Source: an uncultured Clostridia bacterium | Lineage (GTDB): Bacteria; Bacillota; Clostridia; Christensenellales; UBA1242 | Length of the DNA stretch: 64,000 bases | Direction of reading: 5' to 3' | NCBI GenBank assembly: GCA_944350015.1 | Contig: CALVNW010000001.1 | Location: forward strand, 115,183-179,182 | Shown here: positions 28,278-44,800 of the stretch, one piece after another | Numbering within the stretch: position 1 is the first letter of the stretch | How the letters are laid out: every line of letters starts with the position of its first letter | The notes under the pieces: model-generated | Database searches by the model: none | Seen by the model: only the letters and a program-made list of their open reading frames with translations | What the model was told of the DNA's origin: nothing | Made by a program: the position numbers and the translations under genes

Positions 28278-28416
28278 GGCTTGTTAGAGCGGATACGAAA
28301 TAGAAACTCAATATTTACTTTGGCGGACAATCGCCAAGCGTAAGGCTTGTTAGAGCGGAGACGAGGTATAAATTGAAAAATCATTTTGACGGACAATCGC
28401 CAAGCGTAAGGCTTGT
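28278..28416. repeat. ~66-bp tandem repeat (about 2 copies plus a degenerate one) abutting the tRNA fragment
   Basis: CGGACAATCGCCAAGCGTAAGGCTTGT occurs at 28324-28350 and 28390-28416. GGCTTGTTAGAGCGGA occurs at 28278-28293 and 28344-28359. Each unit contains a TTGGCG/CGCCAA hairpin. Confidence 0.8.
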
Positions 28417-28460
28417 GGTGCACCCAGAGGAGATCGAATCCCCAACCTTTCGTTCCGTAG
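28416..28460 (-). pseudogene. 3' half of a canonical tRNA-Arg(ACG): anticodon loop through CCA, no 5' half
   Basis: The minus strand reads CTACGGA-ACGAA-AGGTT-GGGGA-TTCGATC-TCCTC-TGGGTGC-A-CCA. Sequence 5' of the loop (GCTTG) cannot pair with ACGAA, and no GCACCCA lies nearby. Confidence 0.8.
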
Positions 28461-28777
28461 CAAGCACCTAAAAATGTTATAATTTGCAATTTTTGCACCA
28501 TTTTTCATCATATTTTATCAAATACTGAAAAGCCTAAACCCCATATAAAATATGACAAATCAGCTTTTATCTTTAACATACAACATTAAACAAAAGTAAA
28601 ACATAAAAACACATCATAAAACGGCACATTTTTCATAAACTTTGCAAAAATCAAGCACAAATTCGTAGACACGAGCATGAGAGCTTCTCTTAAAAAAATT
28701 TAATTCTGATTGCTACTTTTTTGTTAAGCATTTTTGTTACATTTAATTTTTCTGTGAAAGCATGTGGATTTTTAGTA

Positions 28778-28806
28778 TTGACACAAAGCTTATATGTTGT
28801 TATAAT
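28778..28806 (+). promoter_or_regulatory. consensus sigma-A-type promoter of the island operon
   Basis: TTGACA (28778-28783), a 17-nt spacer, then TATAAT (28801-28806). GGAGG at 28815-28819 and ATG at 28827. Confidence 0.7.
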
Positions 28807-28826
28807 AACCATATGGAGGATTAAAA

Positions 28827-29429
28827 ATGATAATAACAATTGATGGAGCTGATGGAGTTGGAAAAACATCTTTAGCACAGAAATTAAAAATTTATTATAA
28901 TTGTACATTAATAGAAAAACCAATTTATACATATTATAAAAGAGAATTTGGGGAAAACTGGAAAATTTTAGCAGACAAAGCGATGCAAGATAACTTAGCA
29001 GATAACTTAACTGATGAAGATAAAGTAAGGTTCGTTTGTAAATTTTTAGTTTACCTAAAGAATATATTAAACAAAAATGATTTATATATAATAGATAGAG
29101 GATTATTATCTTGTTATATTTACAATGGTAATGAAAAAACAAATCACATATTTGATAAACTTATAGAAAATGGAATTGGATTTGACTTAAGTATTTTATT
29201 AGATGCTGATACAGGCATAAGAAAGCAAAGACTCCTTTATAGAGATAAGAAAATAGATAGTAAAGTATTAGGGCTTAGGGTAGATAGGGCTTTGTCATAT
29301 GCAAAATCAAGAAATATGAATTTTGAGTATATAAATACAACAAAATTAAGTATAGATGAAGTTTTTGAACAATCAAAAGCAATGATAAACCGAAATATAA
29401 GAGAACATTTTGATGAAAGGGAATTATAA
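28827..29429 (+). CDS. P-loop kinase, thymidylate-kinase-like
   Basis: Walker A IDGADGVGKTS and a DRGLLS motif. It lacks the REPGGT-type motif of the canonical Tmk encoded at 55467-56111. Confidence 0.6.
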   Translation: MIITIDGADGVGKTSLAQKLKIYYNCTLIEKPIYTYYKREFGENWKILADKAMQDNLADNLTDEDKVRFVCKFLVYLKNILNKNDLYIIDRGLLSCYIYNGNEKTNHIFDKLIENGIGFDLSILLDADTGIRKQRLLYRDKKIDSKVLGLRVDRALSYAKSRNMNFEYINTTKLSIDEVFEQSKAMINRNIREHFDEREL

Positions 29430-29431
29430 AT

Positions 29432-30289
29432 ATGGAAATATATGAATGTCCACAAATTATAGAGATTCAATTTTGCAACTTATGTAACTCAAATTGTTTG
29501 ATTTGTCCTTACAAAGATATGAAATATAAGGCGGAGTATATGTCAAGCTCTTTGTTTTTTAAATTTATCAATGAGTTAAAAACATTAAACATAAAAAGAA
29601 TTATACCATATTTAAATAATGAACCATTTATAGATAAAAATTATATAGATAAAGTAAAAATAATACGAGAGAATTGTCCGAATGTAGAAATAGAAATATC
29701 TACAAATGCTTCATTATTGACAGAAAATATAATGTTTGAATTATTGAAATTAAATATTACTGAACTAAGATTAAGTGTATTTGGGTATTATAAAAAGACA
29801 TATAACAAAATGATGCCCAATTTAACAAAAAATGTTGTATTTGAAAATCTACACAAATTATCCAAAATTTTTAAAAATGCTAACACAAAAATTTCAATAG
29901 TTATGATTGATAATGGACAAATAGAAGAAATCGAAATCCAAAAAATGAAAAATCTTGCGACCAATTTGAATTTTGAGTTTAACAAATGGGGATTTCTTGA
30001 TAGGGCAAAAAATGTTAAAGGACAATCAAATGACTTTTATAATGATAAAGTAAATTTTTGTGAACAATTAAGGCCACTAAAAAGAATGCATATACTTGCC
30101 AATGGAGACGTCATTTTTTGCTGTCAAGATTGGAGACATAGGTATATTGTGGGCAATTTGAACAAAAATTCAATACTTGAAATTTGGAATTCTGAAAAAT
30201 ATAACTCTTTAAGAAAACAATTGTATGATAAAAATTTACTTGCTCCAGAGTTATGTTGTAATTGTAAATTAGCACATATTAAGGAGTAA
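29432..30289 (+). CDS. radical SAM enzyme with C-terminal SPASM/twitch-like Cys cluster
   Basis: CNSNCLIC (CX3CX2C) near the N-terminus. C-terminal C...GDVIFCCQD...GNL...EIW...CCNC. Confidence 0.75.
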   Translation: MEIYECPQIIEIQFCNLCNSNCLICPYKDMKYKAEYMSSSLFFKFINELKTLNIKRIIPYLNNEPFIDKNYIDKVKIIRENCPNVEIEISTNASLLTENIMFELLKLNITELRLSVFGYYKKTYNKMMPNLTKNVVFENLHKLSKIFKNANTKISIVMIDNGQIEEIEIQKMKNLATNLNFEFNKWGFLDRAKNVKGQSNDFYNDKVNFCEQLRPLKRMHILANGDVIFCCQDWRHRYIVGNLNKNSILEIWNSEKYNSLRKQLYDKNLLAPELCCNCKLAHIKE

Positions 30290-30291
30290 GT

Positions 30292-31758
30292 ATGAAAGTA
30301 GGAATTTATTATTTTAGAACATTATATACACAATCAGCGGCCTCCCTTTCGGTTGGCAAATTGTCGAATAAACTTTTAAACAATGGATATGAAGTAAATT
30401 TATTTTTGCTAAATCAAAGCAATATTTATGATAATATTTTTAATTTAAAAAATGTAGAAAATTTAGATTGTTTAATTTATAAGTGCAATTATAAAGATTT
30501 TGAATTTGGTATCAAGTTTTTTAAAAAGATATATGAAAAATATCATAAAAAAATATTTTTAACGGGTGTTTTCGCATGTTTAAATAAAAATAGAATTGAA
30601 GAAAAGTATAGTTTTCTTAAAATATTCAATCTTCTAAATGATGAGGATATAAATTTAACATTTCCTTATGTTGCTACTAAAATTCAAAAAGAAACTGTAA
30701 TTTGCAATGTTGATAGAGAAATTGAGCTAAACGAGCATAGCAAATACATTAATATAGAATTAACCAATAGTTGTAATAAAAAATGCGAATTTTGTCATAT
30801 TAATTTATTAAATCATACAAAAATAGATAAAAATATATACGAATTAGTCAATGAAATAGAATCTCTTATTAAATGTAATAAAAGATTTTTTATATTTAAT
30901 GATTGCATTTTTTGGACAGGAGAACAAGATAACGAAAAAATACTTGAATTTTGCAAAGAGGTAAAGCGAAGAAAACTAGTTTTTAGTTTTTACATTTATC
31001 TTTCATTAACACCTTTAATTCCTGATAAGCTCTTGAAAGAATTAAAAGATATTGGACTTGTAAGAGTTTTTTTTGGTGTTGAGAATATTTCAAGCGACTT
31101 CTCAAATCATTATTTGAAATTCTTGTCAACGCAGAACACAGAAAGAATGATACAAAAATTGAATGCTTGCAAAATATCTTATCATATTGGATTTATTTTA
31201 TTTTATAAACAGGTATCTTATAATTCTTTATTAGACAACCTAAATTACTTACGAACATTAGGAAAACTTTTCAGATTAGGTATAATTATAGAAAAACTAA
31301 GAATTTTACCACACACTAAAGATGCTTGTTATCTTACTGAAAACAAAGATAAAATAGATATGGCTTATAATTATAATTTTGATGATGAAAAAGTTGAAAA
31401 AATATTTAATAATCTTACACATTTGTTTAAGAATATCAACATTCGCAATTTTGAACAATTTTTTAATGGAATTTCACTTGCCGAAAGTTTATTAATAAGA
31501 TACAATAAATATGATAGTTATAAAAAGGAATTAAATGATTATTATAATTTAAAAATAGATGTAAATAATAAACTTTATGATATAATAATTGATATAATAG
31601 AAAAAGACGAAATTAATGAAGATCACATTAACGAAATCAAACTTTTGTATTCTGCTAGCGAAATAAATTATACTTTTTTCTTTAAAAAATTATTGACTTT
31701 AGATTTTGATATTTTTTCTATGATACCACATGGGCAGGAGACATTAAATTTATGGTAA
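30292..31758 (+). CDS. radical SAM enzyme with N-terminal B12-binding-type domain (class B-like)
   Basis: The N-terminal ~100 aa have a Rossmann-like pattern (SLSVGKLSNKLLNNGYEV...IFLTGVF). This is followed by CNKKCEFC and GVENIS. Confidence 0.65.
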   Translation: MKVGIYYFRTLYTQSAASLSVGKLSNKLLNNGYEVNLFLLNQSNIYDNIFNLKNVENLDCLIYKCNYKDFEFGIKFFKKIYEKYHKKIFLTGVFACLNKNRIEEKYSFLKIFNLLNDEDINLTFPYVATKIQKETVICNVDREIELNEHSKYINIELTNSCNKKCEFCHINLLNHTKIDKNIYELVNEIESLIKCNKRFFIFNDCIFWTGEQDNEKILEFCKEVKRRKLVFSFYIYLSLTPLIPDKLLKELKDIGLVRVFFGVENISSDFSNHYLKFLSTQNTERMIQKLNACKISYHIGFILFYKQVSYNSLLDNLNYLRTLGKLFRLGIIIEKLRILPHTKDACYLTENKDKIDMAYNYNFDDEKVEKIFNNLTHLFKNINIRNFEQFFNGISLAESLLIRYNKYDSYKKELNDYYNLKIDVNNKLYDIIIDIIEKDEINEDHINEIKLLYSASEINYTFFFKKLLTLDFDIFSMIPHGQETLNLW

Positions 31759-32636
31759 TCGCGTTTGAGGGGAATGTACATTCGGGTAAAACATATTTTA
31801 CAAAGCAATTTTTGCATAAACATAAAGATTTTACATTTATACCCGAAATACATTTCATTGAAAAGCCAAACCAATTTGAGCAACAAGAATATTATATAAA
31901 AGAAGAAATATCAAAAAAATCCAATAACCTTGACAAAAATATTTTACTAGATAGATCAATAATATCAACAATTATATTTACTCAATATACAACAATGTTA
32001 ACAAAACAAGATAAGAAATTCTTATTAGATAAAATCGAAAAGGCTATTTTAAATAAAGATTTGTTCTTCCCAGATATTGTTTATATTTTCCTCTATCCTT
32101 TTAATAAAATAGTAGATAACCATAATATTTTATACAAAACAAAACATACTCAAAATGAACTTGCTACATATGATTACTATTGCTTTACACTGAAAATTCT
32201 TTCAAATTTAAGCAATAAGTATAGAATAGTATATAATGATGATGACAGGCAAATTTTAGAAGTAAAAAATATAAAATTAAATCAAACTCAAAATAATATT
32301 ATAGCAATTAATTTAACAAAAATTAATTCAGAATATAATTTGAATAAATTTTACGAAAAATATATAATTAAAAGGGAAAAGGTTGATGAGAACTTTTTAA
32401 AAGCACTATTGTATTTTGCAAAAAGCTTAAACAATAATAATTTTTCAGCATTAATATATGATATTTATAAGAACATTCCTTTAATTTATCATTTTAAAAC
32501 AAAAGATGTTATAAACATTATAAAGAATTCGCTTAATTGTGAACTTCAAATTGATCTAAACAAAAAAAATAATGTTGTTTTTTTAATAGACATAATGGAA
32601 TTTATAAAAAATTATAGGGGGGAGATAAAATGTTGA
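31752..32636 (+). CDS. deoxynucleoside-kinase-like P-loop kinase fused to an unknown ~130-aa C-terminal region
   Basis: Walker A FEGNVHSGKT and the LLDRSIIS motif (dNK/TMK family). Overlaps the upstream gene by 7 nt. Confidence 0.55.
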   Translation: MVIAFEGNVHSGKTYFTKQFLHKHKDFTFIPEIHFIEKPNQFEQQEYYIKEEISKKSNNLDKNILLDRSIISTIIFTQYTTMLTKQDKKFLLDKIEKAILNKDLFFPDIVYIFLYPFNKIVDNHNILYKTKHTQNELATYDYYCFTLKILSNLSNKYRIVYNDDDRQILEVKNIKLNQTQNNIIAINLTKINSEYNLNKFYEKYIIKREKVDENFLKALLYFAKSLNNNNFSALIYDIYKNIPLIYHFKTKDVINIIKNSLNCELQIDLNKKNNVVFLIDIMEFIKNYRGEIKC

Positions 32637-33832
32637 TATTCCTTATATTATCAGTTTCAATTATAATGTTTTCAATATTAAAAGCACTTTATAGGCTAAT
32701 AAGAGTTAAAAAATTCCTTTTTAGTAGCAAAGTTTCTTTGGATAATTCAATGATGGGTAATAATAAAAAAATTGATATAATTATCCCCGTTTACAATGAA
32801 ACTAAAACAGTTGAAAATAGCATAAGCTATTTTTCTAGGTTAGATAATTATTGTAATATATATTATGTCACAACCAATAAAGAAAAAAGTAAAGATACTT
32901 ATAAAAAGATTCTTTATTTGATAGATAAATACAAAACGAAGAATGTTTTTCTTTATAACTGCCCAAATACTACAGGAACTATGGCTACACAACTAAATTA
33001 TATTGCGAAGAAATTGCCTAATGACAGCATTATTGGGATATATAATGTAGACTCTTTTCCAAAACCAGATACATTTCTATATGTATTAAATCACATAAAA
33101 AAAGGATCCCCCTTGCAACAGGTATCCTATTTTAACGATAATAAAAAATTCATAATGTCCAGTGCGCAAAATTGGCAAAATAGATGGTCTGTTGTTTATG
33201 AACTAGGTAAATATACTAGTAAAGCAAAATTAAATTTTACATATAGTATCGGACACGGTTTTTTTATTTATAAGTCTGATTTAGATAAATATGGCTATTG
33301 GTCCGATACAGAAATTAATGAAGACAATGAATTTGGCTATAGAATTTTAATAAACAATGGTAAAATATATTCCATTCCTTTTTTTGAACAAGCTGGATTC
33401 GCTAAAAATGTATCAGTTTATATAAAACAACAATCGACATGGTTTAATGGTCCATTGTATGCTTTTAGTTATTTTAAAAAGAATAAAAAAAATTTTCATA
33501 ATTTTTTATTATCATGTTTAAATTTTAAAGCTGCAGTAAGTTGGCTATTTTATCCAATTTTTTCACTCATAATTTTTATTTTAGGATTTATCTTCAATTA
33601 CTGGTATATTTCGATCATTTTATTTGTCGAAATGTTTATTTATATTACAATTATTAACTATCTCTCATACAAAATTTTAAAAGTATATTTACCAAAATTA
33701 AAATACTCGCTAACATCAGTTTTAACTGATTTTCTCTTTTTTTTAATTCATTCTTTTGGTCCTTGCCTAACATTGTGCAAAGTTATTTTAAGAAAAAATA
33801 CGATTAACAATAAATACAATACAGAAAAATAA
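32630..33832 (+). CDS. integral-membrane family-2 glycosyltransferase (processive-synthase-like motifs)
   Basis: N-terminal TM helix. Motifs IDIIIPVYNE, NVDS, EDNEFGYR and QQSTW (QxxRW-like). At least 3 C-terminal TM helices. Confidence 0.7.
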   Translation: MLIFLILSVSIIMFSILKALYRLIRVKKFLFSSKVSLDNSMMGNNKKIDIIIPVYNETKTVENSISYFSRLDNYCNIYYVTTNKEKSKDTYKKILYLIDKYKTKNVFLYNCPNTTGTMATQLNYIAKKLPNDSIIGIYNVDSFPKPDTFLYVLNHIKKGSPLQQVSYFNDNKKFIMSSAQNWQNRWSVVYELGKYTSKAKLNFTYSIGHGFFIYKSDLDKYGYWSDTEINEDNEFGYRILINNGKIYSIPFFEQAGFAKNVSVYIKQQSTWFNGPLYAFSYFKKNKKNFHNFLLSCLNFKAAVSWLFYPIFSLIIFILGFIFNYWYISIILFVEMFIYITIINYLSYKILKVYLPKLKYSLTSVLTDFLFFLIHSFGPCLTLCKVILRKNTINNKYNTEK

Positions 33833-33851
33833 AGATATGAAATACATATCC

Positions 33852-34370
33852 TTATTTTTTGTGGACTCCTCTTGCCTTTCTCATTTCAAAAAGTGCTGAA
33901 ATGAAAGATGGGTAGTAACCTATAAAATTTTTTGATTCTATCATTTTCAAAATTTCTTCCTTTGTTGCCCATTTGACGGCTTGAACTTCATTATCTTTAA
34001 AAGTAACTTCATCTAAAGATACATCTTTTTCAATTAAATAGAAATCATCAAAACCATTGTCAAAATTAATGGTCATATATGGTCGCTCATTCGAAAAATC
34101 ATAATCTAAGCCAAGTTCTTCGCTCAATTCTCTTCTTGCAGCTTGCCTTGAGTTTTCTCCTGCTTGAACACATCCACCTAATGTGATGTCCCAAGCATTG
34201 GGCCACGATTTTTTGGTGCTTTGTCGCTGTTGAATAAGCATTTCACCTTTTTTATTAAAAATACATATATGTATAACCAGTCTACAAAGATCAGAAGGAC
34301 AATTTTCTCCGCGCTCAATAGTTTTGCCTACTAACTGCCTATCATTATTATATAAGTCCCATTTTTCCAT
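33852..34370 (-). CDS. Nudix hydrolase
   Basis: Nudix box GGCVQAGENSRQAARRELSEELGL. The start is set at the ATG 9 nt after AGGAG. Confidence 0.8.
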   Translation of the reverse strand: MEKWDLYNNDRQLVGKTIERGENCPSDLCRLVIHICIFNKKGEMLIQQRQSTKKSWPNAWDITLGGCVQAGENSRQAARRELSEELGLDYDFSNERPYMTINFDNGFDDFYLIEKDVSLDEVTFKDNEVQAVKWATKEEILKMIESKNFIGYYPSFISALFEMRKARGVHKK

Positions 34371-34417
34371 AATCACAAACTCCTTTTTAATAATATAACA
34401 TAATTAATGTAAAAAAA

Positions 34418-35053
34418 TCAACTTTTTTTCAAAACAAAAATAATAAAGGGTTTATTTTTAAACCATTTCTTAACTTGTAAAATTTTTTTTACAAACTTTC
34501 TATCGTCAAATCTTTTAATTTCAACGATTTGAAAGTTAGCTGAATCTAGAATTTTCAGCCAGTCTTTTTTGGACATAAATCTTTCGTTTCCATATGTTGC
34601 CTCTTTTTTATTAAAAAAGTTTGTTGGTACGCTAATTATATTATATTGGCAAAAATTAAATATGTTTTTGATTGCTTTTATTATCATTTTATCATTAAAA
34701 TGTTCGTAAACACCATTTGAAAATGCAACATCAAATTGTCTATCAAATTTGCAATTTATTATATCCTCTTTTAAATATTCCGGTATGTTTTCATTCTCTT
34801 TAGCTATATTTGAAATTTGTTTAGCTAGATTTATCATCTTTTCATCATTATCTATAGATACTACCTTATAACCTATTTGTGCTAGATATAAAGATATAAT
34901 ACCTGTTCCGCAACCAGTTTCAATGATTGTCTTGTTATTTGCATATTTTTCTATTATCTTGATATAATTTTTTTTATATTTAACTTTATTTTCTATGTAT
35001 TTTTTTACACCTTTTTTATTAATTTCATCTTTATAAACTTTAATCCATTCCAT
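34418..35053 (-). CDS. class I SAM-dependent methyltransferase
   Basis: Motif I IIETGCGTGIIS. The start is set at MEWIKVY after AAGGTGG. Confidence 0.7.
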   Translation of the reverse strand: MEWIKVYKDEINKKGVKKYIENKVKYKKNYIKIIEKYANNKTIIETGCGTGIISLYLAQIGYKVVSIDNDEKMINLAKQISNIAKENENIPEYLKEDIINCKFDRQFDVAFSNGVYEHFNDKMIIKAIKNIFNFCQYNIISVPTNFFNKKEATYGNERFMSKKDWLKILDSANFQIVEIKRFDDRKFVKKILQVKKWFKNKPFIIFVLKKS

Positions 35054-35233
35054 ATATACCCACCTTATTAAATAACATAAAAACACATTAAATAATTTAT
35101 CTCTTTAATTAAGATAATGATTTATGCTTATTAATAATATATTATAAACTATACAAAAATTTAGTCAAATGTTTTGAAGGCCGGAATTTAGATTAACAAA
35201 AAATATCAATATAAATATTTCGGCATAGAAATT

Positions 35234-35588
35234 ATGGAAGCGCAAGCAAAATACATTTTTGAAAACTTGGAATTTGATAAAATCGAAAATGGATATTTTG
35301 TTGCAAGTCATCGAACTTTGCCACTTTTTCCAAAAATAGAAAAACTTTTGCTTTGTCAAAAAGAGCAAACGGAGCACAACAAACTTATCTATGGCAAATA
35401 CTACAACACCAAATATCTTGACTATGTCTTTGTGAATGAAATTGTGATTTACTTCTTCCTGACTATGTAGCTCACAAATTTTGTGAGATTTTAAAGAAGA
35501 ATAAACTCAAACACCATTCGCTTTCACGATTTGAGGCACAGTTGTGCAAGTTTGCTTGTTGCTAATGGCGTGCTAATTTTGTGATTAA
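35234..35588 (+). pseudogene. tyrosine integrase pseudogene (N- and C-terminally truncated, two in-frame stops)
   Basis: Reads ...RTLPLFPKIEKLL...YLDYVFVNE...*LTNFVRF*RRINSNTIRFHDLRHSCASLLVANGV and then stops. The catalytic-Tyr segment is absent. Confidence 0.75.
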
Positions 35589-35589
35589 A

Positions 35590-35624
35590 ACAAAAAATCT
35601 AGCGACTGTCAAAATCGCTAGATT
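35590..35624 (-). terminator. intrinsic terminator immediately 3' of the mini-tRNA copy
   Basis: The minus strand reads AATCTAGCGA-TTTTGACAG-TCGCTAGATT followed by TTTTTTG. Confidence 0.6.
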
Positions 35625-35644
35625 GCCCATAAGTATTGGGGGGA

Positions 35645-35698
35645 TGGTGCACCCAGAGGAGTTCGAATCCCCAACCTTTCGTTATGCTTTCTGGGTGC
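35645..35698 (-). pseudogene. internally deleted tRNA-Arg copy (acceptor stem, T arm and 3' anticodon-stem strand only)
   Basis: The minus strand reads GCACCCA-GAAAGCATA-ACGAA-AGGTT-GGGGA-TTCGAAC-TCCTC-TGGGTGC-A-CCA. The D arm, 5' anticodon stem and loop are missing. Confidence 0.75.
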
Positions 35699-35862
35699 AA
35701 ATCTCAAGTTCTGCGTAAATTTTTACACCCAAAAACAACTAAAACGCCCAAAACGACTTGTGTTTTTACACATTTCACACCTAAACAATACAACATAAAT
35801 ACACAAAAAGTCAACCGTATTGGTTGGCTTTTTTCATATCTAAAAACAAAGGAGAACTACAA

Positions 35863-36381
35863 ATGAAAGTAATAACAACAATGCAAGAAGCATTACAAGA
35901 ACTACCTAATACAAACCTAACTCCGAACGTAGTAAAGGACGTATTACTAAATACGTACCTGTTTGAAACAGAGTTCAAAGGTAGTACAATAAATCAAATA
36001 ATAATACTAGATAAAGATGACAACTACGTACCACCAAATACGACACCTGAAATAGAAGAAGATATAGACAACTACCATAAAACCCTGTACATAGTCTCTG
36101 ATACTGGCGAGGGTGTACTGACGTATTCCGAACAAATTCGAGGTATGGCTTCGACTCCCATCGTCCTTGACGATAATCAACGAATAATAACTTTGCTACA
36201 CAACGCAATTTCATACATAGAAGATACAATGTTGAATGGCGATAAACTAATAAACACGAAAATAGCAAATGAACTTGGCATCACCAACGAAGAATACGAA
36301 CATCTAATGAGTGAGTGTCCTGAGAGTGCTGACGATTCAACTAGTAACCTCGCCGAAAGGCGTAAAATCACTACCAAATAA
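35863..36381 (+). CDS. hypothetical protein (element-borne)
   Basis: ORF with an AAGGAG RBS at MKVITTMQ. No motif recognised. Confidence 0.5.
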   Translation: MKVITTMQEALQELPNTNLTPNVVKDVLLNTYLFETEFKGSTINQIIILDKDDNYVPPNTTPEIEEDIDNYHKTLYIVSDTGEGVLTYSEQIRGMASTPIVLDDNQRIITLLHNAISYIEDTMLNGDKLINTKIANELGITNEEYEHLMSECPESADDSTSNLAERRKITTK

Positions 36382-36458
36382 AAAACACTTGCCAAACCAT
36401 CAAAATTCCTATGGGGGTGGGTGGGCGTTCTTGGCATATTAAAATAAAGGAGTAAAAA

Positions 36459-36707
36459 ATGGATAATCTAATTGAACTTGTATGGAACAAGTTAGAAGAA
36501 ACCGAAAGAACTGGCGAAATGGAACGCCAACTAGACATAATAATTGAAAAAGAAAAGAAATTCACAAAAGAATTTTCAAAAGATAAGTTTGGCGAATATC
36601 TAGACCTATCTTTTGAAACACTTGCGTACGAAGGTATGAAGATTGAGCAAGCAATCAAAGTGACAATCGAAGTATTGAAAGATATTCAAAAACTAGTCGC
36701 CGTCTAG
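36459..36707 (+). CDS. hypothetical small helical protein (element-borne)
   Basis: ORF with an AAGGAG RBS. No motif recognised. Confidence 0.45.
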   Translation: MDNLIELVWNKLEETERTGEMERQLDIIIEKEKKFTKEFSKDKFGEYLDLSFETLAYEGMKIEQAIKVTIEVLKDIQKLVAV

Positions 36708-36763
36708 AAACTTATACGTAAAATGAACTATACTTAAAATGTTTGCAAAAAGGAGGCGAAAAT

Positions 36764-37720
36764 ATGCAAATACTATTCAAAGATTGGCTGATTGAATGGC
36801 TTGAAAGCAAGAAGAACAACATAAAATACCGAACATTTTTGAGATATAACGAACTGATAAAATTACACATACTTGAAAACTTGGGTAATGTTGAAATCAA
36901 AAACCTCAGTTTGCAAATGGTACAAGATTTCATAAATACTCAAATGGAAAAAGGAAACTTAAACAATGGTAAAGGTATGTCAACCAGCAGTGCAAAAACA
37001 ATGATAAGTATAATCAAAAATAGCGTTGACTACGCTGTTGATTGTGGAATACTAGAAGATAATAAAATAGCAAGAATGAAAAACCCTAAGTCAGTTGAAA
37101 GATACGTTGACGCATTCACGACACAAGACCAAATAAAGATTGAAAACTACATACAAAACAATGGAAGAAAAAATCACATTGGAATAATAATCTGCTTGTA
37201 CACAGGTTTGCGATTGGGTGAACTACTATCTCTCACTTGGGATGACATAGATTTTGAACATTCAATGTTAAAAGTAAATCGCACATATTCAGTAATCAAA
37301 AATGAAAATGGCGAATACATACAGCACATTGATACCCCTAAAACGTTCAGTTCTCGTAGAGTGATACCATTACCACCTTTCCTACTAAAAATACTTAAAC
37401 AACTAAAAAGGACTAGCACAAGCAACCACATTATCAATACTTGCCATAATACGCTAGTAAGTCCTCGTTCGTATCAAAGAACGTTTGAAAAGATAACACG
37501 CAAAGCAAATGTACCTAAAAAGAATTTTCACTCACTACGTCACACATTTGCGACACGTGCTCTTGAAAATGGAATGGATGTCAAAACTCTAAGCAAGATA
37601 CTAGGACATAAAAACCCTATGATTACACTCACAAAATATGGGCATAGTTTGATTGAAACTAAACGCAAGATGATGAATGCCCTTGCTAAAATCTCAGTTT
37701 ACAATCTCAAAAAAGTATAA
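36764..37720 (+). CDS. tyrosine recombinase / phage-type integrase (apparently intact)
   Basis: YTGLRLGELLSLTWDDID, HSLRHTFATRALENGMDVKTLSKILGH and a TKYGH C-terminal Tyr. The start is set after AAGGAGG. Confidence 0.85.
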   Translation: MQILFKDWLIEWLESKKNNIKYRTFLRYNELIKLHILENLGNVEIKNLSLQMVQDFINTQMEKGNLNNGKGMSTSSAKTMISIIKNSVDYAVDCGILEDNKIARMKNPKSVERYVDAFTTQDQIKIENYIQNNGRKNHIGIIICLYTGLRLGELLSLTWDDIDFEHSMLKVNRTYSVIKNENGEYIQHIDTPKTFSSRRVIPLPPFLLKILKQLKRTSTSNHIINTCHNTLVSPRSYQRTFEKITRKANVPKKNFHSLRHTFATRALENGMDVKTLSKILGHKNPMITLTKYGHSLIETKRKMMNALAKISVYNLKKV

Positions 37721-37849
37721 TAAATGACATCTTGCAAAAGTCACAAAATTCAGCCAAAAAATGAAACAAAAAATCCACCTATTTATTCAATTGGTGGACT
37801 GAATTTTTAAGTTCTTACATTCATTATAGCAGAAAAGAGGGACAAATAC

Positions 37850-37879
37850 AATACTTTTTGAAAAATTTCAAAAAGTATT
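37850..37879. promoter_or_regulatory. perfect 14-bp inverted repeat (operator-like) upstream of the element lipoprotein gene
   Basis: AATACTTTTTGAAA-aa-TTTCAAAAAGTATT. Confidence 0.4.
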
Positions 37880-37944
37880 ACCAAGATTCACGTCAAAAAA
37901 CCACCTAATGAATAAATTGGCGTACATACAAAAGGAGAATAAAA

Positions 37945-38732
37945 ATGAAAAAAAGAAAAACGTTGTTGACTATAATGATTTCAGTATTTTTATGCTGTGC
38001 ATTTCTTTTAAGTGGTTGTGGTGGAAGTAAAGACTCAACCGTATCAGTTAGATTTGGTGAATTTGGATATAATGGCAGATATTTAACAGCCTTTGCGACA
38101 CAAAATATCCAACCTGAACAAAGCAAAACAAATTTTGTCTGATAATATGGGTAGCAATGTTATGTCAGTAAGTGCATTATCGGTAGCAAGTGAAGTTAAC
38201 CCAGCCCCAGACCAAACACTAGTTGACTTTGTGCTTGCTAGATATGCAGGATGCCATATCATAACTAAATTCTATGTTGAAGGAAGCGAAGAACAAGTTT
38301 CAAAAACAGATTACTTAATTGGTACTGACTTAAAAAATATGATTGTTGAAAATAAGTTTACACCTTTTTTAACAATTAGTTGCAAAATATGTGGTTTGTT
38401 TTCCAAATTTAATTGATACAATGGAAGAACTTAATAACGAATTTCAAAATTCCAGCGAATCACTAATTGCTCCATTTACTAGTATATTTACATACCATAC
38501 TAACGCAAAAGGCGAATTGGTTATTCAATCAAGAGATTTTGCTGAAATACCTTCAAGCATTGGTGGTGGCATAGGCTCGAGTTATAGACAAGATACTGAA
38601 ATACTATATGACAATCAAAATAAAATTCAGAAGTGGCAAACTTCACTTGGTTTGTATTCTGCTACACCACAAGGAACAATGAAGCAAGGTTATATTTTGG
38701 AAATTGAGTTTATTTGGGAAATGAAAGTATAA
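37945..38732 (+). pseudogene. lipoprotein gene apparently broken by two frameshifts
   Basis: Lipobox LLSGC-GG at the start. Three consecutive overlapping ORFs in frames 1, 2 and 3 (37945-38142, 38093-38416, 38391-38732) without their own RBSs. Confidence 0.4.
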
Positions 38733-38746
38733 GGAGTAAATATATA

Positions 38747-39013
38747 TATGATAACTTTTTCGTATGTATTAATTGCTTTCATTGGACTGGGTTTTATTTT
38801 CAATATTACATTGGAATATTGACATCATTGCTTGGAATAATTTATCTATGTTTGTATATTTTTAAAGCAATGGTAGTTATTGAATTAGCGTGGGCTTGGT
38901 TTGCTGTTGTCTCCCTATCAGTTTTAATCAATCTATTTTTAGGTGGTAAGGGGTTGGCTTTGATATGTGCAACTATACCAGAGATTGTATATTTATGTAT
39001 AACACTATTTTAA
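38747..39013 (+). pseudogene. small membrane protein gene, probably frameshifted
   Basis: The ATG at 38747 follows AAGGAG but stops after 24 codons. The hydrophobic ORF continues in another frame to 39013. Confidence 0.3.
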
Positions 39014-39034
39014 TTATTAAAAAGAGGGCAATAT

Positions 39035-39289
39035 GTGTATTTTAAGAAAAAAATACAAACTACAAGAAAATATAAAAAAGAATTTTTGCTTGAAATCGCA
39101 AAGATTGCTTGTGAAGAGAATATGTATATCTCAAGCATTCAAAGAAAACTAAGTGTCGGATACGCTGTAGCAAGTCAGCATTTGGAGTGGCTTGCAAGCA
39201 ATAAATTCGCAAGTTTGGATGCCGAAGGGAAAACCTATTCAATGAATAAAAAACAATACATTAAACTTACAAAAGCAAAATTTCAATAA
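39035..39289 (+). CDS. small winged-helix protein resembling the FtsK gamma domain
   Basis: ISSIQRKLSVGYAVASQHLEWLASNKF resembles the FtsK-gamma S.LQRRL.IGYNRAAR motif. Confidence 0.5.
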   Translation: MYFKKKIQTTRKYKKEFLLEIAKIACEENMYISSIQRKLSVGYAVASQHLEWLASNKFASLDAEGKTYSMNKKQYIKLTKAKFQ

Positions 39290-39359
39290 GGAGCAAAGGA
39301 TGTCAAACAACGAAAAAATGAAAGAACTATATACTAAACTATCTACTTAATACTCAGAT

Positions 39360-40008
39360 ATGTCGTTTGAGTTAAAAGATAATCAAGTGTTGAGTAAATA
39401 TAAGAATGGAGTTTTTGTATTAAAAAATGTTTCTGATAGCAAATACTATGGCGTAACCGTTCAATACAATATCTATTACAAACACAATATTGACGAAAAC
39501 GAAGTATTAAAATGCTTAAACGAAATAAACTCAGAACACAACCTAGTGGCAACTCTAACTCAATTCTCAAGTTACTGGTGAGAATTATCACGGAATTGTT
39601 TATGGACGTGCTCAAATCAAGGAGGAAGGAACGATTGTTTCAATTTCAAACACTATCCTCAGAGATATTATGATTCGCAACGGTTTCCCTCAGTACAGGA
39701 ATTATTTTCCAGATTGGGAGAAACGAGGTTTTGCAAGAATTATCAGCACCAACTCTGCGAATTTAGGCAGGCACGTCGACTTTTATTTCAGGGACAACGT
39801 TGGGTATGGTCAAAGTGATTTCCCTGAGAATGCAAAGCCAGTCAAGAGTGATGCAGAAATCATTAAGGAGTTGAGACAGCAAGTTCAGTCTCAACACAGC
39901 ACTATTCTATCTCAGGAGCTCAAAATTGACGAGCAAAGCAAGAAGATTGACGAGTTTGAGAAGGTAGAAGTAGATAAGGCGATTAACGAAATGTTTGACA
40001 AAAATTAG
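39360..40008 (+). other. two adjacent ORFs (39360-39581, 39670-40008) that may be one frameshifted gene, function unknown
   Basis: The frame upstream of 39670 is open (GENYHGIVYGRAQIKEEG...) and abuts the end of the first ORF. Confidence 0.3.
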
Positions 40009-40049
40009 TTAATGTTAAACGTATTTTATATTTATGGTGTTGGAAGTAA

Positions 40050-40301
40050 GTGTTGTTCCAGCATCTGCAAACGATGGGCGATTTATTTCGCCCTTTGTTT
40101 ATGGCGAAGTTTAGAACTATTGCAAAAGCACTTGAAGAAGTGAAGAAGATTGACCCTGACACGTGTTTGTCAGATTATGTATTGAGACGACTTGCGTCTG
40201 AGGAAAAGATTTCTCAGATTCAGTCAGGTAACAAAACACTTGTTGAAGTTGAGTCACTACTCGACTTTTTGAACGGAGAAGAAAACCAAGAAAGAAGTTA
40301 G
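40050..40301 (+). CDS. excisionase-like small DNA-binding protein
   Basis: Lies directly upstream of the integrase remnant. The ...VLRRLASEEKI...GNKTLV...LLDFL pattern resembles Tn916-type Xis. The start codon is uncertain. Confidence 0.4.
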   Translation: MLFQHLQTMGDLFRPLFMAKFRTIAKALEEVKKIDPDTCLSDYVLRRLASEEKISQIQSGNKTLVEVESLLDFLNGEENQERS

Positions 40302-40695
40302 CGTTTTAGATGATACCGATGCAAAAGCACTCAAAAAGGCACTCGACGAGGAGCCAAACATTCGCTGGAAAGTTGCAATTTACAAGGAAATATTGATTGA
40401 CGACTGGAAGCATACTGACCGATTATTGATTTCGGATGACGGACACGTGCTACGACCATCTTGCTACAAAAAATGGCTCAGCAAGATTTTGCAAAGAGCA
40501 AACTTGAAATCCGTGACGCTTCATTCTCTCAGACATACCAATATCACTATGCAACTGACTTTAGGTGTTGACCTTAGGACTGTTGTAGCACGTGCAGGAC
40601 ATTCACGTACTAGTACGACCACCGACATTTACTCTCACTTCATCAAGAGCAGTGACCAACACGCAAGCAAAGTGATTGACTCGCTATTTGAGTAA
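40273..40695 (+). pseudogene. tyrosine integrase remnant (internal deletion; C-terminal catalytic part retained)
   Basis: Reads ...LDDTDAKALKKALDEEPNIRWKVAIY and then jumps directly to ...HSLRHTNITMQLTLGVDLRTVVARAGHSRTSTTTDIYSH. The ARM-type N-terminus and first catalytic Arg region are missing. Confidence 0.7.
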
Positions 40696-40708
40696 TTATC
40701 AGGCACAC

Positions 40709-40743
40709 AAAAAAAATCCCCTTGAAGCATTTTTCAAGGGGAT
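40709..40743 (-). terminator. intrinsic terminator of tRNA-Arg
   Basis: The minus strand reads ATCCCCTTGAA-AAATGC-TTCAAGGGGAT followed by TTTTTTTT. Confidence 0.75.
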
Positions 40744-40747
40744 TATA

Positions 40748-40822
40748 TGGTGCACCTGCCAGAATTCGAATCTGGAATGACGGTTCCGTAGACCGTTGTG
40801 ATATCCATTTCACCACAGGTGC
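40748..40822 (-). tRNA. tRNA-Arg (anticodon ACG), CCA encoded
   Basis: Hand-folded cloverleaf: GCACCTG/CAGGTGC acceptor, GTGA/TCAC D stem with GG and A20, ACGGT/ACCGT anticodon stem, loop CTACGGA, CCAGA-TTCGAAT-TCTGG T arm, discriminator A. Confidence 0.85.
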
Positions 40823-40982
40823 ATATCGTGACTTTTGAATGAGATTTCGAACTCAATTTTTAGCATTTTTAACAACTTCGGTGCAAATTGGGTGCAAATT
40901 TGCATTTCTTATTACCCATTATACACCGAATTGCTTTATTTTTCAAGGGTTTTTGGCTATGAATTTTTGCCAGAGCAAAAGT

Positions 40983-41012
40983 TCCGTAGACGAACGCTCT
41001 ATCCAGTTGAGC
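40983..41012 (-). pseudogene. 5' internal portion of a canonical tRNA-Arg(ACG): D arm, 5' anticodon stem and loop
   Basis: The minus strand reads GCTCAACTGGATAGAGC-G-TTCGT-CTACGGA. TTCGT complements the ACGAA of the 3' halves at 28416 and 35645. No acceptor strand is present. Confidence 0.7.
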
Positions 41013-41178
41013 AATTACTACTTTTGCTTTAACTAGCATAATTTTTGTTTTCTAACCCTATTGACCTCTATATTATATCATATTATTTTTAATTTTGCAA
41101 TAATTTTTAATAGATTAATTTTTTTGTTTTAATTTTGTTTATTAAAAGATAGATGCTATAATAAAAAAGGAGCAAATT

Positions 41179-41844: not shown

Positions 41845-44800
41845 ATGAAATCAATTTATAAATATTATAAAGAAAGATTAATAGAAATAAGCGGTAAAAA
41901 TCGAAGTTTATATTCAAAAAACATCAGCAAGAAATATGCCTACGATATTGGCGCTGTGATTGGCGATGATAAAAAAGAATTTGATGAGTTTTTCACTTTT
42001 TTGTGGAAAGGCAAACGCAGTGGCTACACGCTTATAAAGAAAGAGGCAAAAGATAGGCTCAGCAAAAACTTTAATCTTGAAAATAAGATTAAGGCATCTT
42101 TTATTGACACTAAAAATATGTCAACAGAAGAAAAACGAAGCGAAAATTTGAGAAGGGAACGCGTCAAAAAGGAGGAGACAAAGAAACTACTTCTATCTCA
42201 AGTAAGCCAGCTTAAATCGCTAAAAAGAGAGATAGAGGAGTTTGCCAAAGAAACAGGCCGTTATGAGATGTTTATTGGCTATCCATTTGTTACAGGTTAT
42301 ATTAATAAAGATATGCAGATAAAGGGACCTCTAATTCTTTTCCCAGTTACCATAAATATAGAGGATGACCAAACAGTGAGCATTGAGGCAAAGCAAGATG
42401 AACTTATACAATTTAACAAGGTGCTTGTGCTTGCCTATGCTAAGGAGCATAAACTCAATTACGACGGGCTTATTATGGAGTTTGACAACCTCATAGATTA
42501 TAAACTTAAAAGCATAGAGGACGTTGTCGACTATCTTTCAGCCTACGGTTTTAAATTGGAGTGGCAGGGCGATAAGAAAGGGCTTATCAAATTTGACCAA
42601 ATTGCCGAGCCGTCTTTTAAGGATGATGCTCTTAAAGTGGTCAATGCTTGTGTTATTGGAAGATTTCCTCTTGCAAATGCGATATATAACGATTATTCAT
42701 TGCTTGAGAAAAAGCGCCTGTCAAGCGAGGCGATAGACCAGCTTTTAGAGGGTAAAAGTGGCAAGAAAATCAAAAAAGTTGACGAGAGCGTATACACAAT
42801 AAACGATCTTGACTATGCTCAAGAGAGTGCAATCACGGCGCTTAATGGGTCTGGCAACCTTGTCATCTACGGACCGCCTGGAACAGGTAAGTCACAAACC
42901 ATTGTCAACATCATATCCGATGCACTATGCAAAGACAAAAAGGTGCTTGTGGTATCGCAAAAGAAGGCGGCGCTTGACGTTGTATTTAACAGACTTAAAA
43001 ACCTTAACTCAAAATGTATGTTCATAACCGACGCCGAGAAAAATAAGGTTGAATTTTATGAAAGATGCAACAAAATGCACCAAGCGCTAGTCAATGGTTA
43101 CAAGCCAAGCGAAGAAAAATATGAAGAGTTTAAGCAGGTGGAGGAGAGTATAGACAGAGAGACTAGTGACCTTCAAATAATTTCAGACACCCTCTTTACT
43201 AAAACATCGTTCGGGCTGACTTTACAAGAGATGTACGCAAACTCAGCGCGTATTGGAAAGACTAGCAATGACTATGTTGTCTACAAACAGATGCTTAAAA
43301 ATCGCGAGCTTATGAAGATGGACTACAAGCGTCTTTACCAAACTCTTCGTGTCATAAAGGAGAAAAATAAGAGCAACCTTTATTACCGCTATATAGAGCT
43401 TAAGAAAAATAATCCGCTCATTGACCATATAAGAGCAGACGTAGACATTCACGTCATCAATCAGATGAAAACCTACTTAAATGGACTTATACAGAAAACA
43501 ATCATACCTTTTGACACGGCAAAACATCCGCACGCAAGACAACTTATGGTCTATATGCTTGAAAATGATATAGAGGACAACAAGAAGATTAAACCTCTTG
43601 TCAAGATGATTTCAAAGATAGACTATCCAAAACTCCACACCGCGCTCAACTGGTCAAAAGTGTTTTTCCCAGCCTATCCATTTGTAAAACACAAACTAAA
43701 CGGCGTTGAAAAAGAGATTTCAGAGCAGTTCGAAAGCACACTTGCCGACATACAAAGCTATATTAGTAATTATAGCTTGCTTGAAAAGGTGCTTGACCGT
43801 AAAGGTTACCTCATGACAATTGACAATATCGTCAATGGCAACACCATCTTTTTGAAGCTATTGCTAAGCGCCCTAGAAGATTACGTTGAGATACGTGACG
43901 TCAACGTTTCGCTCAGCGGGTTGACCGATGATGAAAAGACGATATTAAATTTTGCCTATGCAAACTCTAAAAACTTGAGGCAATTCCAAGATGTCATATC
44001 AAAACTACTTGAGATAAGAATTTATCACGAGGCTGTTACACAAGAAGAGCTTAACAAGGACAAACTTTCAAAGATTATTGACTTTGAGAATATCAGAAAT
44101 AGGATAGTTTCATTAAAGAACGACGAAAAGCAGATTGCAAACGAGATTTGTATAGAAAAGTTTAAGCAGGAGTATATTGACCATTATAATAACGACCCTG
44201 ACAACAAAAACTATCTCTATCAAATCACAAAACAGCAAGCGCTAATGCCTATAAGGAAGATGATGGACCTTTATAGCGACTATCTATTAAAACTCTTCCC
44301 TTGCTGGCTACTTTCACCAGAAAGCGTGTCAACAATATTCCCATTAAAGCGAAATATGTTTGATATCATTCTGTTTGACGAGGCAAGTCAGGTGTTTATT
44401 GAAAACACCTTGCCAACAATCTATAGAGGCAAATATATCGTTGTTGCCGGAGACTCAAAACAGCTTAGACCAACCCAGACCTTTATGAAGAGGTATCTAG
44501 GCAATGATGATGAGGACCTTGACCTTGCAACGCAGGCGGCACTTGAGGTTGAAAGTTTGCTTGACCTTGCAACTTCGCGTTACACCAGCGCAAATCTTAC
44601 CTACCATTATAGAAGCAAAAATGAAGAGCTTATAGACTTTTCAAACTACGCCTTCTATGATGGTAAACTTCAAATTGCGCCAAACATCTCAAAGAATGTT
44701 GGCAGTAAGCCTATTGAAAGAATAAAGGTCAACGGCACTTGGATAGGGAGACGCAATCAAGAAGAGGCAAACGCCATTGTAACGCTACTTAAAAAGCTTA

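Follow-up and report, generated by a model that had tools for sequence, protein, structure and literature searches.

The stretch of DNA analysed here, 64 kb from an uncultured gut Clostridia bacterium (hereafter the window, whose positions serve as coordinates throughout and which is the part of the genome in view), carries a 12.6-kb insert at a tRNA-Arg(ACG) locus in the space between a prephenate-dehydratase-like gene and rnhB. We read this insert as a decayed tandem array of two elements, element A and segment CB, at a tRNA-Arg(ACG) hot spot, in which CB would have split the tRNA gene that it entered without restoring it and would have brought a tRNA-Arg(ACG) of its own. We give this reading a probability of about 0.68. 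The initial annotation had proposed a single composite island that split the resident tRNA and supplied a replacement. The island-borne tRNA stands; the splitter appears to be CB, with a tRNA piece that we call M as the partner, and not the whole composite island. Piece M, the three integrase genes or remnants, a second strong promoter and the tandem nature of the insert had been overlooked there.

The arrangement is not an assembly artefact, since it is shared by independent assemblies. A 350-kb metagenome scaffold (ONAT22-1_SAMEA6814446 scaffold_18) agrees with the window at 100% identity, and assemblies made independently from several samples (L001, L003, L109, L112, L113, and L114) show the same layout, down to each base around the tRNA.

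ARAGORN and Rfam, which were used for tRNA detection in the window, agree on a sole tRNA there, a 75-nucleotide (nt) tRNA-Arg(ACG) on the minus strand at 40748-40822 (59.9 bits). Pieces of a 77-nt-type tRNA-Arg(ACG) surround it, also on the minus strand. Frag5 (40983-41012) comprises nt 10-38 of this split gene, from the D arm through the anticodon loop, and reads, from 41012 to 40983, GCTCAACTGGATAGAGC-G-TTCGT-CTACGGA; directly after it comes ACTTTTGCTC, with no tRNA 3′ half. The common core CTACGGAAC, 9 bp in length, occupies 40981-40989 (minus strand) and constitutes the split junction, Site 1. Frag3, or Site 3 (28416-28460), holds the same 9-bp core and a tRNA 3′ half through CCA; from 28460 to 28416 it reads CTACGGA-ACGAA-AGGTT-GGGGATTCGATCTCCTC-TGGGTGC-A-CCA. 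The 9-mer GTTCCGTAG occurs in exactly three copies, at 28452, 40783, and 40981; shuffled sequence contains a mean of 0.13 copies, and none of 100 shuffles had three. Minus-strand reading, ARAGORN and Rfam thus place the two pieces, the three 9-mers and the intact tRNA where the initial annotation had put them.

Aligned with the tRNA-Arg(ACG) genes of relatives, Frag5 agrees with nt 10-39 at 27-29 of 30 positions, and Frag3 agrees with the final 45 nt at 31-34 of 45. When the two are joined, the D, anticodon, and T stems are all perfect, which bears out the claim that they reconstruct a tRNA-Arg(ACG) lacking nt 1-9; ARAGORN calls the joined pieces a 77-nt tRNA-Arg(ACG) only with a hypothetical GCACCCATA supplied as nt 1-9. 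The proposal that a tRNA-Arg(ACG) was cut within its anticodon loop by site-specific integration is likewise upheld. As had also been claimed, the junction at 40981-40989 rebuilds no tRNA: neither ARAGORN nor Rfam calls one at Site 1, and the same is true of M.

Piece M (35644-35683, minus strand) is a fourth tRNA-derived piece and a second copy of the tRNA 3′ half, a 39-nt repeat with 97% identity to 28416-28454. It forms the inner junction of segment CB (35684-40980, 5.3 kb). The segment thus has a 5′ tRNA part with the core at one end and the core with a 3′ half at the other. In the window, the M end is damaged. The undeleted junction is kept in three conspecific contigs (L103, L112, and L114), where the element arm (...AAGTGGCATATA) is followed by CTACGGAAC and then by a 3′ half that is identical to 28416-28460 over 45 nt; past it come the same terminator-bearing flank and the remnant of the integrase of element A (int_A). 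Compared with this junction, M in the window lacks ~155 nt of element arm plus core. Because such an arm-core-3′ half junction lies inside the insert, the 12.6 kb appear to be a tandem array and not one island. It is CB, and not the whole 12.5 kb, that appears to have split the gene, and the physical partner of Frag5 is M, 5.3 kb away. The earlier pairing of Frag5 with Frag3 does not hold; the latter reads as the displaced 3′ half of a separate, classical element, A. Segment CB and its target tRNA have only the 9-bp CTACGGAAC in common.

What is left of the distal (P) arm of CB in the window (35684-35727, minus strand) holds a fortuitous GCACCCA, which lies ~170 nt from the core when the arm is undeleted. 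We had considered M as a tRNA deleted for nt 8-36, with this GCACCCA as nt 1-7 and hence as the complement to Frag5, and rejected this candidate, as L103 and L114 place the motif ~170 nt up the element arm.

The intact tRNA-Arg(ACG) at 40748-40822, to which we refer as type 2, has a GTGA/TCAC D arm and a 4-nt variable loop and shows pairing in all its stems; its agreement with the reconstructed resident tRNA is limited to 50 of 78 aligned positions. It is located 158 bp inside the CB junction, adjoining the stump of a large tyrosine integrase (int_C), and downstream of both the fossil Frag5 and a promoter that is conserved at this locus. An intrinsic terminator with a 12-bp stem followed by a T run accompanies it (40715-40744, minus strand). 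Two strong sigma-70-type promoters point at the tRNA, one from 41100 to 41072 and one from 40946 to 40918. The former is the conserved promoter, TTGCAA-17-TGATATAAT (41072-41100, minus strand). The latter, TTGAAA-17-TATAAT (40918-40946, minus strand), matches the consensus at 11 of 12 positions and lies within the proximal (P′) arm of CB (40823-40980, minus strand), between the core and the element tRNA. The presence of an intact, divergent tRNA-Arg(ACG) with its own terminator in inserted DNA had been proposed before, and the distance and the alignment given above agree with it. The conclusion that the replacement tRNA belongs to the inserted DNA is supported by its location within CB, 158 bp from the junction and downstream of fossil and conserved promoter, by a promoter and a terminator of its own, by its contact with int_C, and by its lack in the island-free haplotype described below.

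The type-2 scaffold is common to phage tRNA-Arg genes. Its D-arm signature GTGGTGAAATGGATATCAC occurs in 12 IMG/VR contigs, mostly in phage tRNA-Arg(UCU) genes that stand in tRNA arrays, and a metagenome scan for the type-2 anticodon arm gave one match, which was uninformative. Among relatives, a near-identical type-2 tRNA-Arg(ACG) is the only copy at the L044 locus, 196 nt upstream of rnhB, i.e., at the canonical position, and the type-2 tRNA is also present in L022 and L100. At 6108-6440 of L022, a repeat of the final 20 nt of the type-2 tRNA together with its terminator stands ~190 nt downstream and bears the mark of a distinct integration event at the 3′ end of this tRNA. A further observation concerns position 53:61 of the T stem, which is A:T both in the replacement tRNA (CCAGA/TCTGG) and in the fossil 3′ halves (GGGGA/TCCTC), and G:C in all relatives and phage tRNAs examined.

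Element A (28461-35643, ~7.2 kb) has the layout of a classical tRNA-integrating island and appears to be of a restoring design. It is bracketed by 45-nt direct repeats that run from the anticodon loop to CCA, of which 39 nt are left of the inner copy in the window; Site 3 is its outer junction, and its integrase lies at the tRNA-proximal end. The int_A remnant (35234-35573, plus strand) comprises 340 bp with 90% nucleotide and 92% amino acid identity to the middle of a 419-amino-acid (aa) integrase in L013; 466 bp with the C terminus are deleted at 35573|35574. The terminator-bearing flank 3′ of the tRNA (35574-35643, minus strand) follows, and it is homologous to the flanks of intact tRNA-Arg genes in L008, L010, and L013. 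The arms upstream of Site 3 and of M have only a weak, AT-rich similarity.

The locus itself is an old tRNA-Arg site, as indicated by the tRNAs of relatives and by the conserved promoter. A scan of species-representative genomes with RNase HII put the host of the window among uncultured Clostridia. In L027, L028, L031, and L041, a 77-nt tRNA-Arg(ACG) lies ~200-260 nt upstream of rnhB and divergent from it, as in the window; in L042b the distance is 134 nt. The promoter TTGCAA-17-TATAAT (41100-41072 in the window) is conserved in L008, L102, L009, L013, L024, and L029, and in L029 it stands directly in front of a 5′-half fossil, a pseudo-tRNA.

An island-free haplotype of the same locus is available in contig L102, which was found by an exact-protein look-up with the methyltransferase of the left flank, and in L008, the species representative, which has the same layout. 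(The same kind of look-up with the pheA-like protein as called in the window gave no record.) Both are 96 to 97% identical to the window on both flanks. Homology stops at ~28420 and resumes at 41062, and in L102, 989 bp stand in place of window positions 28421-41061 (12.6 kb). These 989 bp hold an intact 77-nt tRNA-Arg(ACG), a small open reading frame (ORF) under the conserved promoter, and a short 3′ fossil; the type-2 tRNA is missing from this haplotype. Thus, the expectation that island-free relatives would carry an intact gene at this locus was correct for L102 and L008. Their gene does not have the predicted GCACCCA..GCTCAACTGG.. sequence, as the L102 gene (GCGTTCATAGCTCAGCTGG..) matches the reconstruction at 64 of 79 aligned positions. 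Its 3′ fossil is yet another tRNA-Arg allele and abuts the same 66-nt repeats that are found in the window. In the latter, the displaced tRNA half is followed immediately on its 3′ side by two tandem 66-nt repeats (28278-28409, 83% identical), which are kept in L102, where the fossil that they adjoin is a different one. The small ORF (L102 12299-12583, L008 ~820-1100) encodes 94 aa, has a good ribosome-binding site after the conserved tRNA promoter, and is separated from the tRNA by ~400 nt of AT-rich DNA.

Integration that does not restore its target and carries a tRNA-Arg on board recurs at this locus, since the same layout is found in L024 and in L009, L013, and L029. In L024, an xis-like ORF resembling orf40050 of segment CB is followed by an intact 476-aa integrase, by a 331-aa ORF read in the opposite direction, and by a complete tRNA-Arg(ACG). 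Beyond a 115-nt arm lie CTACGGAAC with a 5′ half that was not restored, another 5′ fossil of older date, the conserved promoter, and rnhB. The host-specific 5′ halves of L009, L013, and L029 run at the core into a conserved arm and spacer, after which an identical complete tRNA follows. Arm and spacer of L013 and L009 are ~94% identical as read from the sequences by eye, and the complete tRNA of L013 adjoins an int_A-type integrase. All eight fossil-bearing loci (the window, L009, L013, L024, L028, L029, L031, and L042) keep at least one tRNA-Arg(ACG), either called by ARAGORN or, in L009 and L029, running into the contig end.

The tRNA alleles are out of step with host relatedness. The window and L008 have different tRNAs at 95% RnhB identity; L008 and L041 have identical tRNAs at 69%, and so do L022 and L044 at 64%. 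This pattern fits element-driven allele replacement and is not proof of it.

A history that accounts for these structures would have two steps. Element A would have integrated classically, with a crossover in the anticodon loop; the tRNA would have been rebuilt with the 3′ half that A carried, and the old 3′ half would have been pushed out to 28416-28460. CB would then have recombined with the rebuilt tRNA through the 9-bp core CTACGGAAC. The junction structure of this second step is directly visible, and the order is the one we infer, because an element of the restoring kind requires an unbroken anticodon arm to integrate into. As the arms of CB carry no tRNA 3′ half, Frag5 would have been left on element DNA and the 3′ half at 35644-35683, and the type-2 tRNA of CB, with its own promoter and terminator, would now supply the function. 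Later decay would have fixed the array through loss of the N-terminal part of int_C, the C terminus of int_A, ~155 nt including the core at M, and nt 1-9 of Frag5; the breakage of a lipoprotein gene in CB would belong to the same phase. If the remaining cores recombined, the product would still lack the 5′ acceptor strand, so the array looks locked in, and excision could presumably no longer regenerate a working resident tRNA. The intact progenitor gene envisaged in this history is GCACCCATA-GCTCAACTGG...TGGGTGCACCA (search form GCACCCATAGCTCAACTGGATAGAGCGTTCGTCTACGGAACGAAAGGTTGGGGATTCGA). The predicted junctions are GAGCGTTCGTCTACGGAACGAAAGGTTGG for the empty site, GGCATATACTACGGAACTTTTGCTCTGG for a CB circle, and TTAGGTGCTTGCTACGGAACTTTTGCTC for a circle of A and CB together.

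Several findings weigh against this history. The intact GCACCCA-type progenitor was looked for among 130 fetched loci, and neither it nor the GCACCCA..GCTCAACTGG.. gene predicted by the initial annotation is intact in any of them. The look-up for an A-only intermediate haplotype found none, and no sign of circular forms or empty sites was seen. At the same boundary, the island-free haplotype carries another tRNA and another 3′ fossil, so earlier events may have reshuffled the halves. The history does not account for the missing nt 1-9 of Frag5, which are absent in every strain carrying it; when the 57-nt leader that lies upstream of Frag5 was aligned with P′ arm and spacer sequences of L013-type elements, no clear explanation of the loss emerged. 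The type-2 tRNA is not always on a recognisable element, as no integrase is seen beside it in L044 and L022. A search for a degenerate core or boundary between modules B and C, of which CB is composed, detected none. Furthermore, the two integrases of CB do not point to the maker of its junctions, int_C being a stump and the homologs of int_B, the intact integrase of module B, standing in no association with tRNA genes.

Some of these points suit a different account, in which the fossils are independent remains of serial turnover. Frag5 and the 3′ halves would then never have formed one gene here; Frag5 could be the 5′ half of a tRNA from an earlier element at a locus that was overwritten several times, and integration would still be non-restoring. 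The different 3′ fossil in the conspecific haplotype, the two stacked 5′ fossils both in L024 and in L013, the patchiness of tRNA alleles relative to the host phylogeny and the fact that the progenitor was never observed are all in line with it. Nevertheless, the anticodon-stem strands of Frag5 and of M and Frag3 pair perfectly, the GCACC.. acceptor type does occur in the 5′ fossils of L009 and L013, and one event most simply explains both CB junctions; we therefore regard independent fossils as unlikely. The integration of a single 12.5-kb composite island, with Site 1 (40981-89) and Site 3 (28452-60) as its two junctions, appears less probable still. Although the anticodon-stem strands of the two pieces are complementary and the loop is common to both, and although A and CB occur together in all island-bearing contigs, one island does not readily account for the internal third junction in L103, L112, and L114, whose core and 45-nt 3′ half are identical to Frag3. 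Nor does it account for the three integrase lineages, with both remnants sitting where independent elements would put them, or for the classical direct repeats that element A has by itself.

That the 75-nt tRNA could be the ancestral resident, with leftovers of classical restoring integrations around it, is suggested by the tRNA of identical type 196 nt upstream of rnhB in L044, where no integrase is seen, and by the ordinary-looking contexts of the type-2 tRNA in L022 and L100. We consider it highly improbable in the window, as the gene lies inside DNA bounded by the 5′ half plus core and the core plus 3′ half of a different tRNA, has both the conserved promoter and the fossil upstream of it, abuts an integrase stump, and is wholly missing from the conspecific island-free haplotype; no displaced type-2 3′ half is present in the window either. 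Chance resemblance or an assembly chimera has practically nothing in its favour besides the short length of the 9-mer, given the shuffling result, the match of Frag5 to real tRNAs at 27-29 of 30 positions and the recurrence of the structure in independent assemblies from several samples. Hence, the decayed tandem array with a non-restoring CB is the reading that we retain.

A bolder extension of the tandem-array reading is only tentative, and we would sooner bet against it than for it. In a clade of gut Clostridia, elements at the rnhB-adjacent hot spot might repeatedly overwrite tRNA-Arg(ACG), each newcomer breaking the current copy and installing its own, which would be reflected in the stacks of fossils and in the alleles that do not track their hosts. 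The phage-scaffold 75-nt allele in L044, L022, and L100 might by now be an ordinary resident, and the present host, through decay of the integrase and the 5′ fossil, might depend irreversibly on its island for the codons CGU, CGC, and CGA.

Segment CB consists of two modules, and with element A the insert contains three integrase lineages, i.e., the int_A remnant, an intact int_B, and the int_C stump. Module B (35824-37720, plus strand) has two small ORFs and int_B (36743-37720 or 36764-37720, plus strand), an intact tyrosine integrase of 318-325 aa. Homologs of int_B elsewhere share 66 to 80% identity, and none adjoins a tRNA gene; the contexts of those in L117 and L119 contain no tRNA and hence give no clue as to which integrase made the junctions. 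The cargo of module C (37945-40301, plus strand) comprises a broken lipoprotein gene, a membrane ORF, an 84-aa ORF, and small ORFs. The lipoprotein gene (37945-38732) is broken into ORFs of 65, 89, and 113 aa; its counterpart in L130 (4681-5436) is intact with 251 aa. The 84-aa ORF has a weak, sub-threshold match to FtsK-gamma. One ORF of the module, orf40050, has a homolog with 40% identity directly upstream of the L024 integrase. The int_C remnant (40393-40695, plus strand) represents the C-terminal 100 aa of a large tyrosine integrase, with HxLRH and the catalytic Tyr present, and is 40% identical to the 476-aa L024 integrase, which has the same position relative to the tRNA. The contexts of int_C homologs in L120-L127 contain no tRNA. 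Homologs of int_C in a 5.8-billion-protein database (P0121-P0175) are nearly all 70-174 aa long, and in L126 (7135-8525) and L127 a 259-aa N-terminal ORF lies beside a 174-aa catalytic ORF; this integrase lineage is therefore often split or truncated.

As it stands, segment CB does not appear to be a phage, and it could be a prophage remnant. None of its 10 ORFs tested had a match in PHROGs, the segment had no match among 50,697 phage records, and scans of viral contigs for the predicted phage attachment-site (attP) junction and the reconstructed bacterial attachment site (attB) gave no matches. One conspecific haplotype, L109, has a deletion at 2390|2391 (window 27904|36529) that fuses the middle of the prephenate-dehydratase-like gene to module B and removes Site 3, element A, and M.

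The very low-GC cargo of element A (28827-35086, GC 21 to 27%) is an operon with genes for a dTMP-kinase-like protein, two radical SAM enzymes (one of them radical SAM/SPASM), a GT2 glycosyltransferase, a NUDIX hydrolase, and a SAM methyltransferase, along with a 294-aa P-loop ORF. It could serve the modification of nucleotides or of the cell envelope. Elsewhere around the locus, the tRNA-Arg and the rnhB promoter of L010 (609-5748) are set apart by genes for a MarR regulator and an ABC transporter fusion and by a 670-aa ORF, so the space 5′ of the tRNA is an insertion hot spot as well. A 1271-aa helicase-like gene (DUF4011/AAA_11/AAA_12/MTES_1575; 41845-45660) lies directly downstream of rnhB in the window and is kept in both haplotypes.

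If our reading is right, it would extend non-restoring integration with a tRNA brought along from actinobacteriophages to an uncultured gut Firmicute lineage, to another tRNA, and to small cryptic islands. The fossil record of the locus, with its stacked 5′ halves, displaced 3′ halves, and mismatched alleles, is a hint that an essential tRNA gene can be replaced through the action of mobile elements, and a tRNA beside an integrase stump may be the sole working copy. Furthermore, island finders that need an intact tRNA gene (tDNA) and a matching displaced fragment are expected to mis-map or miss such arrays.

Classical tRNA-gene islands include the Islander class A, in which attP is centred on the anticodon, and they can form tandem arrays (PMC4383910). 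An island of this class consists of an intact, regenerated target tDNA and a displaced fragment in the same orientation, between which lies an integrase gene. Element A resembles this class in its 45-nt direct repeat from anticodon loop to CCA, in the integrase at the tRNA-proximal end, and in its place in a tandem array at one tDNA. Measured against a classical island, it has the displaced fragment and an integrase remnant, whereas its regenerated gene would since have been split by CB and is no longer there to be found. CB departs further from the classical design, as it shows no regeneration at all and leaves an array with no regenerated target of the fragment's type.

The closest published match, which we draw by analogy, is tRNA-dependent lysogeny, reported for the actinobacteriophages Fionnbharth (K4), Cluster L, Gaia, BrutonGaster, and others (Guerrero-Bustamante & Hatfull, mBio 2024, PMC10865867). 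There, a tyrosine integrase acts on an attB within a tRNA gene through a common core of 8-17 bp, and the tRNA is not reconstructed; instead, the phage carries a cognate tRNA that has its own promoter, bears no close relation to the host gene, and is needed for the survival of the lysogen. Related elements that do and do not restore the tRNA coexist (PMC10865867). The same authors cite the Lj965 prophage of Lactobacillus johnsonii as a possible case outside Actinobacteria, in which no tRNA is rebuilt and a cognate one is encoded (PMC10865867). The mechanism proposed here appears to match tRNA-dependent lysogeny, and the example itself is new. As in the published cases, attB lies in a tRNA gene (Frag5 plus core on one side and, in L103 and L114, core plus 3′ half at the far end); the core CTACGGAAC has 9 bp, and the ACTTTTGCTC behind it brings no reconstruction. 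A gene for a cognate tRNA is on board and intact, with a predicted consensus promoter and a terminator. In contrast to them, the present case concerns tRNA-Arg(ACG) and another phylum, with an uncultured gut Clostridia bacterium as host. A 5.3-kb cryptic segment devoid of phage genes is the carrier and does not present itself as a temperate phage. Its tRNA lies 158 bp from the core beside the integrase, and truncation of the integrase and damage to the 5′ fragment mark the system as a fossil. As cited there, Lj965 offers a Firmicutes precedent for non-restoring integration with an element-borne cognate tRNA; it differs from CB in being a full prophage.

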